A stretch of DNA of 64,000 bases, from sequence record MK817115.1; one strand, given 5' to 3'. Shown here piece by piece: positions 21,466-21,599 of the stretch. Each line of letters starts with the position of its first letter. Position 1 is the stretch's first letter. Position numbers and translations under genes: made by a program. This DNA is from Escherichia phage vB_EcoM_phAPEC6. Below the pieces are notes generated by a model. The model was given only the letters and a program-made list of their open reading frames with translations, ran no database searches and was not told where the DNA came from.

Positions 21466-21479
21466 ATTCAGAACTGAAT
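21466..21479. repeat. operator-like inverted repeat ATTCAG-AA-CTGAAT
   Basis: Half-sites ATTCAG and CTGAAT inverted around 2-nt centre; twin of 21586..21599. Confidence 0.6.
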
Positions 21480-21585
21480 ACTTACATCCTACGTCTAGGT
21501 TTTAAATGTGCACTAGTTGTAATGTGTAGGCACATACGGGTCTGCTTTTAAGCTACTGATTCGGGAATTACAACCTCCCCTAGTG

Positions 21586-21599
21586 ATTCAGTACTGAAT
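21586..21599. repeat. perfect 14-bp palindrome ATTCAGTACTGAAT
   Basis: Self-complementary 14-mer about 120 bp from sister site; shares TCAGTACTGA core with promoter spacers. Confidence 0.65.

Follow-up and report, generated by a model that had tools for sequence, protein, structure and literature searches.

The palindrome pair and its surroundings

The 64,000-nucleotide stretch of the genome of Escherichia phage vB_EcoM_phAPEC6 analyzed here (MK817115.1; hereafter the window) contains a pair of short palindromes within a cluster of tRNA genes. Over the 4 kb tested, the window is 100% identical to Escherichia phage vB_EcoM_G17 (MK327931.1, 370,817 bp), a RaK2/121Q-like jumbo myovirus of the genus Asteriusvirus, as it also is to phage Sharanji; window positions equal G17 record positions minus 56,984. 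The pair lies inside an unannotated gap (21215-21618) between a 71-amino acid gene (21619-21834) and a sigma-70-type promoter that matches the consensus at 12 of 12 positions. The surrounding genes are all encoded on the minus strand, with seven tRNA genes in the interval 20950-25192. The features are as follows, with the palindromes named in order of transcription.

21586-21599: upstream palindrome, 14-mer ATTCAGTACTGAAT; its 16-bp frame, 21585..21600, is GATTCAGTACTGAATA and matches the consensus TATTCAGTACTGAATA at 15 of 16 positions
21466-21479: downstream palindrome, 14-mer ATTCAGAACTGAAT; its 16-bp frame, 21465..21480, is TATTCAGAACTGAATA on the plus strand
21316..21343, minus strand: perfect sigma-70-type promoter (TTGACA, 16-nt spacer, TATAAT; read 21343..21316) with no AGTACT in its spacer, reading into small open reading frames (ORFs) and tRNA-Thr

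The initial annotation had described a perfect 14-bp palindrome at 21586..21599 and a near twin at 21466..21479, about 120 bp apart in an ORF-poor site upstream of a promoter that reads into tRNA-Thr, and this description stands with one correction. ATTCAGTACTGAAT lies exactly where it was placed, ATTCAGAACTGAAT differs from it in the centre only, the two centres are 120 bp apart, and the minus-strand promoter is followed by small ORFs and then by tRNA-Thr (21023..20950). An alignment of ten Asteriusvirus genomes shows, however, that most relatives carry two perfect copies: the upstream palindrome does not vary at all, the downstream one is a perfect 16-bp TATTCAGTACTGAATA in eight of the ten, and the odd centre of the copy at 21466 is a point variant carried by G17 and BF17.

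All of the genome-wide figures below were obtained with the assembled genome of ECO103 4-12-1 (OR844650.1, 351,992 bp), an unannotated relative that is ~98% identical and for which 578 ORFs were called in this analysis (90% coding). The homologue of the downstream palindrome is the sole perfect 16-mer in this 352-kb genome, and the upstream palindrome is one of six matches to the 16-bp consensus with a single mismatch; the 14-mer has only three copies, two of which are the homologues of the pair. In the window, ATTCAGNNCTGAAT with no more than one mismatch occurs five times against 0.32 expected, and none of 100 shuffles reached five. Shuffle controls rule out a chance origin of the palindrome and core matches.

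Genome-wide enrichment of the central word

The 8-mer CAGTACTG is the most over-represented 8-mer of the ECO103 genome, with 204 sites against ~3.5 expected (58-fold), and it is present in every 10-kb bin except the short terminal one. Its inner 6-mer, AGTACT, has 919 sites, 7.6-fold over expectation. The window shows the same excess.

1..64000: dispersed motif copies, 26 of CAGTACTG (0.66 expected) and 149 of AGTACT (~22 expected)

Most of these sites are within genes. Inside ORFs there are 164 of the 204 CAGTACTG sites (~80%), where shuffling of synonymous codons within genes predicts 17.9 +/- 4, a ~9-fold excess, and motif sites are found in all three codon frames. The same preference is evident in codon pairs: codon usage predicts AGTACT for 15.7% of Ser-Thr pairs and GTACTG for 2.7% of Val-Leu pairs, whereas the observed shares are 53% and 17.7%, respectively. 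The synonymous shuffles, the spread over frames and the codon-pair statistics together rule out protein motifs or codon usage as the cause. AGTACT density is near flat along genes, reaching 1.5-1.8 times expectation at -80 to -21 of start codons and ~2 times expectation just past stop codons, and motif density is ~2-fold higher in noncoding than in coding DNA. An oriented promoter element was also considered and rejected, the gene-oriented flanks showing just a weak T...A symmetry and neither a -10 nor a -35 signal, and the distance to the next start codon having only a mild skew. Given the excess over synonymous shuffles, the use of three frames and the flat density, the target of selection or drive is the word as DNA, rather than proteins or promoters.

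Several smaller observations concern the word and its company. Adjacent AGTACT sites show a small genome-wide excess at spacings of 20-22 bp, and at 19631-19673 two copies of CAGTACTG lie 35 bp apart, just past an ORF ending at 19665 and near an annotated terminator. Serine is most often encoded by AGT (34%), which is also the codon read in the motif's most frequent frame, xxC AGT ACT Gxx; a tRNA-Ser gene (22709-22800, minus strand) has the anticodon ACT, cognate to AGU, and a phage tRNA adenosine deaminase is listed in the Sharanji paper. Chi, GCTGGTGG, occurs 12 times on one strand of ECO103 and 16 times on the other, against ~0.9 per strand expected from base composition (a figure that includes codon effects), and the Chi-related TGGTGGTG and GCTGGTG are among the next most enriched k-mers.

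Anatomy, conservation and turnover of the motif

The motif is a nested series of palindromes, GTAC within AGTACT within CAGTACTG within TATTCAGTACTGAATA, and its enrichment rises stepwise with length: 2.2-fold for GTAC, 3.7-fold for AGTAC, 7.6-fold for AGTACT, 20-fold for CAGTACT and 58-fold for CAGTACTG. Single-base variants at the outer positions are 10-13-fold enriched, and those at inner positions are near background. On the sense strand a 5' C (322) and a 3' G (363) are about equal in frequency, and the word is therefore truly symmetric. The flanks favour T...A and extend the symmetry to the 16-bp consensus TATTCAGTACTGAATA; AGTACT sites with 0-3 mismatches to this 16-mer number 51, against 8.6 expected.

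Sites are conserved above background. In a comparison with phage TH47 (34 kb aligned, 82% identity), 11 of 16 CAGTACTG sites (69%) are kept, against 31% for all 8-mers (binomial P = 0.002), as are 62 of 88 AGTACT sites (70%), against 39% for all 6-mers (binomial P = 3e-9). Fourteen TH47 sites lie opposite non-sites of the window; nine of these differ by one base, seven of the nine at an outer position.

The word could in principle be a functionless by-product of biased mutation or repair, as very short patch (VSP) repair has been proposed for the cyanobacterial octamer HIP1, in which case the palindromes would be incidental. The nested pattern of single-base variants is indeed like the one that Elhai describes for HIP1 (PMC4390886), and sites do turn over by single substitutions. 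We nevertheless regard such an origin as improbable. No single-base neighbour is depleted in the manner of a repair substrate, CAATACTG standing at 1.5 times expectation; the sites are conserved above background, which is the argument of Xu et al. for selection on HIP1 (PMC5861425); and mutational drive would not yield the 16-bp flanks, or the fixed promoter register and strand-specific patch described below. Motif scans of the ORF set also found no methyltransferase for the motif, the only such enzymes being a DNMT3-like C5 methyltransferase and a Dam-family enzyme. A methyltransferase-driven model of the HIP type was rejected, as the C5 enzyme is of the CpG type, the other belongs to the Dam family, and the motif contains neither CpG nor GATC. 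The DNA of RaK2 is CpG-methylated, as found by bisulfite sequencing (PMC3622015).

Distribution among phages and in the host

The figures for RaK2 (Klebsiella), GAP32 (Cronobacter) and E. coli K-12 (segment 1.00-1.05 Mb) are from 50-kb samples, and T4 and PA5oct were likewise sampled. CAGTACTG is the top 8-mer in the RaK2 samples (23 and 22 sites against 0.4 expected) and in the GAP32 sample (13 against 0.6), RaK2 and GAP32 being represented mostly by replication and structural genes. The RaK2-like enterobacterial jumbo phages (Asteriusvirus, Alcyoneusvirus and Mimasvirus) carry one AGTACT per ~400 bp, with a mean spacing that is alike in the three genera (380-460 bp). In contrast, AGTACT is depleted 2.4- to 6-fold in the samples of PA5oct, a more distant Pseudomonas relative (3 sites against 17 expected), of T4 (7 against 17) and of E. 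coli K-12 (3 against 11.6), and GTAC is likewise below expectation. Phage DNA thus has ~40 times as many AGTACT sites per kb as the host sample (about one per 400 bp against one per 17 kb), and the combination of enrichment in RaK2-like phages with depletion in T4, PA5oct and K-12 identifies the motif as a trait of the enterobacterial RaK2-like clade, rather than of the host or of coliphages generally.

The motif is not described in the published accounts consulted of Asteriusvirus (Sharanji, fEgEco12), RaK2, CBB and PA5oct or in an overview of jumbo phages, and a full-text literature search found CAGTACTG only in unrelated work and nothing relevant for AGTACT in a phage context. It has the look of a previously unreported sequence tag that marks the DNA of the phage itself.

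One possible reader of the word is a host protein, recruited so that phage DNA would manipulate a host process such as cell division. The nucleoid-occlusion factor SlmA is an obvious example, as its site, GTGAGTACTCAC, has the same central AGTACT (PMC3020112), and the word is enriched in phages of E. coli, Klebsiella and Cronobacter and not in the Pseudomonas relative. However, T4, which grows on the same host, depletes the motif, and the sites differ at the positions that matter. The SlmA half-site is G1 T2 R3 A4 G5 Y6, in which position 1 must be G and position 3 a purine (PMC3020112); in the phage sites the favoured bases are T (position 1) and C (position 3), and G is the rarest base beside AGTACT (0.08). 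The phage half-site T-T-C-A-G-T fails at positions 1 and 3, identity with the SlmA-binding sequence is rejected, and recruitment of a host protein of this kind is very improbable.

Early promoters containing the motif

With a threshold of at least 10 of 12 consensus positions, 401 sigma-70-like sites were identified in ECO103, among which AGTACT occurs 51 times between the -35 and -10 hexamers. In 28 of the 51 occurrences, the first base of AGTACT is exactly 7 or 8 nt ahead of the -10 hexamer, and the promoter then has the form TTGACA-N9-AGTACTG-TATAAT, in which the nine remaining spacer bases vary. G17 has more than 20 AGTACTG promoters within positions 1-50 kb of its record, and five are in the window, all on the minus strand.

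22811..22839, minus strand: early promoter TTGACT-aaatagttCAGTACTGa-TAAAAT, motif in the spacer adjoining the -10 hexamer
23271..23299, minus strand: early promoter TTGACT-aaatagttCAGTACTGa-TATAAT, in which TG gives an extended -10
23681..23708, minus strand: early promoter TTGACT-aaatagttCAGTACTG-TATAAT
6294..6321, minus strand: promoter of the same class, TTGACA-gaagatatCAGTACTG-TATAAT
1982..2009, minus strand: promoter of the same class, TTGACA-aacgttcgtAGTACTG-TATAAT

The first three, ending at 22811, 23271 and 23681, share the minus-strand pattern TTGACT-aaatagtt-CAGTACTG(a)-TA(T/A)AAT. It had been noted earlier that the palindrome core abuts the -10 hexamer in these three spacers, and this is borne out: TTCAGTACTGA is present on the minus strand, exactly at 22811 and 23271 and with one mismatch at 23681. 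The palindrome pair itself is not in any promoter spacer and is instead inside an ultra-conserved ORF-free block that may be transcribed.

The initial annotation interpreted the palindromes as binding sites for a dimeric regulator that could repress or time a set of early promoters. That proposal survives in part. The dyad symmetry of the motif extends to ~16 bp, and its register next to the -10 hexamer is fixed in at least 28 Asteriusvirus promoters, as would be expected of the operator of a dimeric repressor. The motif is not promoter-specific, however: sites are not concentrated at promoters, ~80% being intragenic, and the enrichment extends across the genome and into other genera. A genome-wide comparison of sites near promoters with those elsewhere accordingly gives a divided answer, with raw frequency raised only ~2-fold in noncoding DNA and position within promoters that is not random.

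A second promoter-like family, aaatagTTTTCAGTACTGAATActtaTATAAT, is found in noncoding DNA at ECO103 positions 305,090, 311,831 and 318,593, with the palindrome centre 12 nt before the -10 hexamer (at about -24), so that there is more than one register in which the motif overlaps core promoters. The middle-promoter box 'TGAAACG', a -35 box reported for CBB and GAP32, has no link to the motif.

Interpretation of the motif

The 16-bp symmetry, the additive contribution of the flanks, selection at the DNA level, conservation in the clade and the location of the best sites in non-coding early regions argue for recognition by a two-fold symmetric macromolecule. The explanation that we favour, tentatively and as the most probable of those weighed here, is that the motif represents graded binding sites for a two-fold symmetric phage factor conserved in the clade, and that these have become operators at the early promoters of Asteriusvirus. 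The data establish the enrichment and symmetry of the word, selection on it as DNA, the conservation of its sites, its distribution in the clade and its promoter register; we infer that a protein binds the motif, and with it each of the consequences that follow. A phage-encoded DNA-binding factor would be drawn to phage DNA by the ~40-fold density of sites over the host sample, with weak 6-8-bp cores spread through genes and the best 14-16-bp sites located in non-coding early regions. In Asteriusvirus a large family of early promoters of the sigma-70 type would have acquired the site between its -35 and -10 elements, and a factor occupying the spacer would overlap and block host RNA polymerase and help to shut off early genes. 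The palindrome pair would then constitute two high-affinity sites, 120 bp apart, in the conserved block that lacks ORFs. The downstream one is centred close to -40 relative to an extended -10 element, and so could regulate a small RNA produced from the 3' portion of this block.

Several observations weigh against this explanation. Among the matches listed when 473 small ORFs were compared with Pfam, there is no helix-turn-helix (HTH), ribbon-helix-helix (RHH) or TetR family, although divergent folds would escape such a scan, and ten neighbouring proteins received no annotation from Pfam or PHROGs. The near-flat density of AGTACT along genes suits a process acting on the whole DNA equally well. 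Among the ten RaK2 promoters matching at least 11 of 12 positions, all from a region of small ORFs (250-300 kb sample), none has AGTACT in its spacer, and the enrichment persists there; control of promoters therefore cannot be the ancestral or the main role. Because the palindrome columns are invariant and the change of centre in G17 and BF17 is uncompensated in the other copy, an RNA role and a DNA role for the pair are inseparable by sequence.

A further difficulty is presented by paralogous genes on the minus strand that form an ~8-kb array outside the window (G17 record 334,665-342,289). Here AGTACT is reduced to 0-2 copies, and the asymmetric form TGTACT has 40-45 copies against ~2.6 expected, all of them on the plus strand. 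The TGTACT copies are distributed over three codon frames and non-coding DNA, and the pattern is kept in G17, ECO103 (285.4-293.7 kb) and TH47; the 5 kb next to the array contains neither form. A purely symmetric dimer does not explain this strand-specific patch, and whatever reads the motif can apparently take a strand-specific variant over a defined domain, a property that a complete model will need to cover.

Alternatively, the motif would be a symmetric enzyme site, kept about once per 400 bp for a process that involves the whole genome, such as replication, decatenation, repair or packaging. In favour of this, the patch suggests an activity that distinguishes strands. Candidates would include a nickase or endonuclease, a type II topoisomerase (CA/GTAC/TG suits a 4-nt staggered cut), a primase start and a DNA-modifying enzyme. 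The almost uniform AGTACT density along genes and the 380-460-bp spacing in three genera are also consistent with such a site, as is the failure of any classical DNA-binding regulator to appear among the Pfam matches listed; in two of the three RaK2 and GAP32 segments the spacing is slightly more regular than random (coefficient of variation 0.80, against 0.99 +/- 0.09). Yet T4 and PA5oct have homologous primase and topoisomerase genes of their own and deplete AGTACT, the phage methyltransferases are unfit for a word without CpG or GATC, and a 16-bp flank preference with a fixed promoter register is more typical of operator-like sites. We rank a dimeric DNA-binding factor first and a symmetric enzyme site, which we consider unlikely, second.

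A broader possibility, about which we are doubtful, is that the word acts as a self-DNA barcode in the RaK2-like enterobacterial jumbo phages, which lack T4-style base replacement, and that a phage factor reads it to tell self from host. Reading of the barcode would steer protection, the shut-off of transcription, replication or packaging; control points would be formed by the strongest sites, the palindrome pair included, and TGTACT would mark a separate 8-kb domain.

Comparison with known repeated sites

Phages in which one short site is repeated along the genome, promoters included, and read by one phage protein are known, examples being the 'stoperators' of mycobacteriophage L5 and the conserved inverted repeats of phiC31. 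These multi-site operators number in the tens, are mostly intergenic and belong to temperate phages with a known repressor, whereas here there are hundreds of sites, ~80% of them intragenic, in a lytic jumbo phage. TF1 of phage SPO1 is an HU-type protein that prefers phage DNA and has sites at early promoters, but it recognises hydroxymethyluracil DNA. It is a conceptual match for a phage-DNA-selective factor and differs in that a sequence word is read here; no HU-family protein or other binder was detected among the ORFs scanned.

The sites of chromosome organisers offer a second comparison. The SlmA-binding sequence (SBS, GTGAGTACTCAC) and the Noc-binding sequence (NBS) are, like the motif described here, dispersed dyad sites of 12-16 bp bound by dimers, and the former shares its AGTACT centre (PMC3020112). 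They number ~50-70 per several megabases (PMC3020112), against one AGTACT per 0.4 kb in the phage, and both the multi-site phage operators and the sites of chromosome organisers are 10-100 times sparser than the phage motif.

The closest likeness is with HIP1, GCGATCGC, of cyanobacteria (PMC5861425; PMC4390886). Both words are octameric palindromes, present within and between genes, conserved above background, and with variants skewed to the outermost positions; neither has an established function. As in words of the HIP type, the phage motif combines an order-of-magnitude genome-wide excess with intragenic occurrence beyond protein and codon use and with conservation above background, and its 58-fold excess falls within the 15- to 300-fold range given for HIP1 (PMC5861425; PMC4390886). 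The phage motif has a different, AT-rich sequence, occurs in a clade of viruses and not in a cellular phylum, and is depleted in the sampled DNA of the host, and, unlike in Elhai's association of HIP1 with a methyltransferase that recognises its inner sequence, no cognate methyltransferase was found among the scanned ORFs. The fixed promoter register and the strand-specific variant patch are features of the phage motif in its own right.

Hyper-abundant palindromes such as HIP1 have long been a puzzle in cyanobacteria. Here an analogous motif is carried by a virus of 350 kb for which E. coli K-12 can serve as the host, as the work on Sharanji shows, and it would offer a small and tractable system for studying what these words do. 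The data suggest that in a clade of jumbo phages codon-pair usage has been moulded by a DNA signal, which has also been incorporated into early promoters. The motif points to a regulator or enzyme not yet described, and it provides a signature by which members of the clade could be recognised and recently acquired, motif-free DNA flagged.

The ORF-free block and neighbouring features

The block that contains the palindrome pair is a candidate structured non-coding RNA or regulatory locus, and has the following features.

21340..21615, minus strand: single-copy, nearly invariant, ORF-free block (~275 nt) within the tRNA cluster, holding both palindromes
21440..21448, minus strand: extended -10-like element TGGTACAAT with no recognisable -35, invariant in the alignment
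21414..21431, minus strand: predicted hairpin capped by a UNCG-type tetraloop, the loop being TTCG or TCCG across relatives
21346..21382, minus strand: terminator-like 3' end, consisting of hairpin GGATATTGTTGCAACAGTATCC, then AGTACTAC, then 7 T

In the alignment of ten Asteriusvirus genomes the block is almost unchanged while its flanks are replaced or bear indels: the gene upstream is replaced in Turkey5 and JNE01, and the ORF region downstream has large indels in PBECO4, SD6, 121Q and BF17. No paralogue of the block is present elsewhere in the genome, and an Rfam scan of 19000-26500 (E <= 1) returned tRNAs only, with no match in the block. TGGTACAAT may serve as an internal promoter from which the 3' part is transcribed, one that a simple promoter scan does not call because it has no -35; the centre of the downstream palindrome is 27 nt upstream of its hexamer, at about -39.5. 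The terminator-like end is likewise uncalled by a simple terminator scan, owing to the 8 nt between its stem and the T run. Just two predicted base pairs in the block change on both sides, one in the tetraloop hairpin (A-U to G-C in phage UE-S1) and one in the terminator stem (G-C to A-U in two sequences). To judge from its sequence, this 3' part resembles a small RNA.

Stable small RNAs encoded in a phage tRNA cluster are known from T4, as species 1 and 2. The block is like these and the RNA-seq-defined non-coding RNAs of PA5oct (PMC7318152) in its location among tRNA genes, its predicted hairpins and its terminator-like end, and has no sequence or Rfam similarity to them.

The palindromes could act in RNA, with the ~275-nt block as a structured non-coding RNA in which they close a 106-nt domain or form local hairpins. 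This would fit the near invariance of a block that sits amid swapped flanks in a tRNA cluster and ends in a hairpin and T run, and also the variation within it, which is mainly in predicted loops and unpaired stretches or preserves pairing, including the two changes on both sides of hairpins. PA5oct, too, makes abundant non-coding RNAs from ORF-free regions (PMC7318152). The fold z-score is -1.75 for the block and -2.48 for a 140-nt stretch that folds with the palindromes paired together, two copies of one palindrome being mutually complementary. Against an RNA role, covariation is limited to the 3' part, with the palindrome columns and the G17/BF17 centre behaving as noted above; the z-scores are modest throughout (-0.7 to -2.5); and, as the word is present hundreds of times elsewhere, its sequence needs no RNA explanation. 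An RNA role for the palindromes thus appears rather unlikely, and it is compatible with binding of a phage factor as the favoured explanation of the genome-wide motif.

Scans of IMG/VR and metagenomes for more divergent copies of the block gave only near-identical Asteriusvirus sequences and two unrelated repeat elements. The first, in metagenome contig WFLX010380919.1 (1520-1685), consists of seven direct repeats with a 23-24-bp period and the core CATTCAGTACTG; it is iteron-like, and a 194-amino acid ORF beside it has no Pfam match and no homologue among the phage ORFs. The second, in contig Ga0190272_10419081 (759-1039), has three ~130-bp repeats, each with the 14-mer ATTCAGTACTGAAT. An ORF for an IS200/RAYT-like Y1 transposase is overlapped at its 3' end by the first of these and followed by the other two; they look like repeats of the repetitive extragenic palindromic (REP) type that share the word by coincidence.

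Three small-ORF loci near the block were also noted. A 37-amino acid ORF (G17_00174; 21101-21214, minus strand), the second of two very small ones after the perfect promoter, is kept in all ten phages, with differences that by inspection are mostly synonymous. The first of the two, of 38 amino acids (about 21201-21320, minus strand), is replaced or deleted in PBECO4, SD6, 121Q, BF17, Turkey5 and JNE01. At 23720-24206 (minus strand) there are three tandem, overlapping 54-amino acid ORFs (165 nt each) with near-identical stretches, a local gene triplication beside the tRNA-Arg/tRNA-Ser pair.

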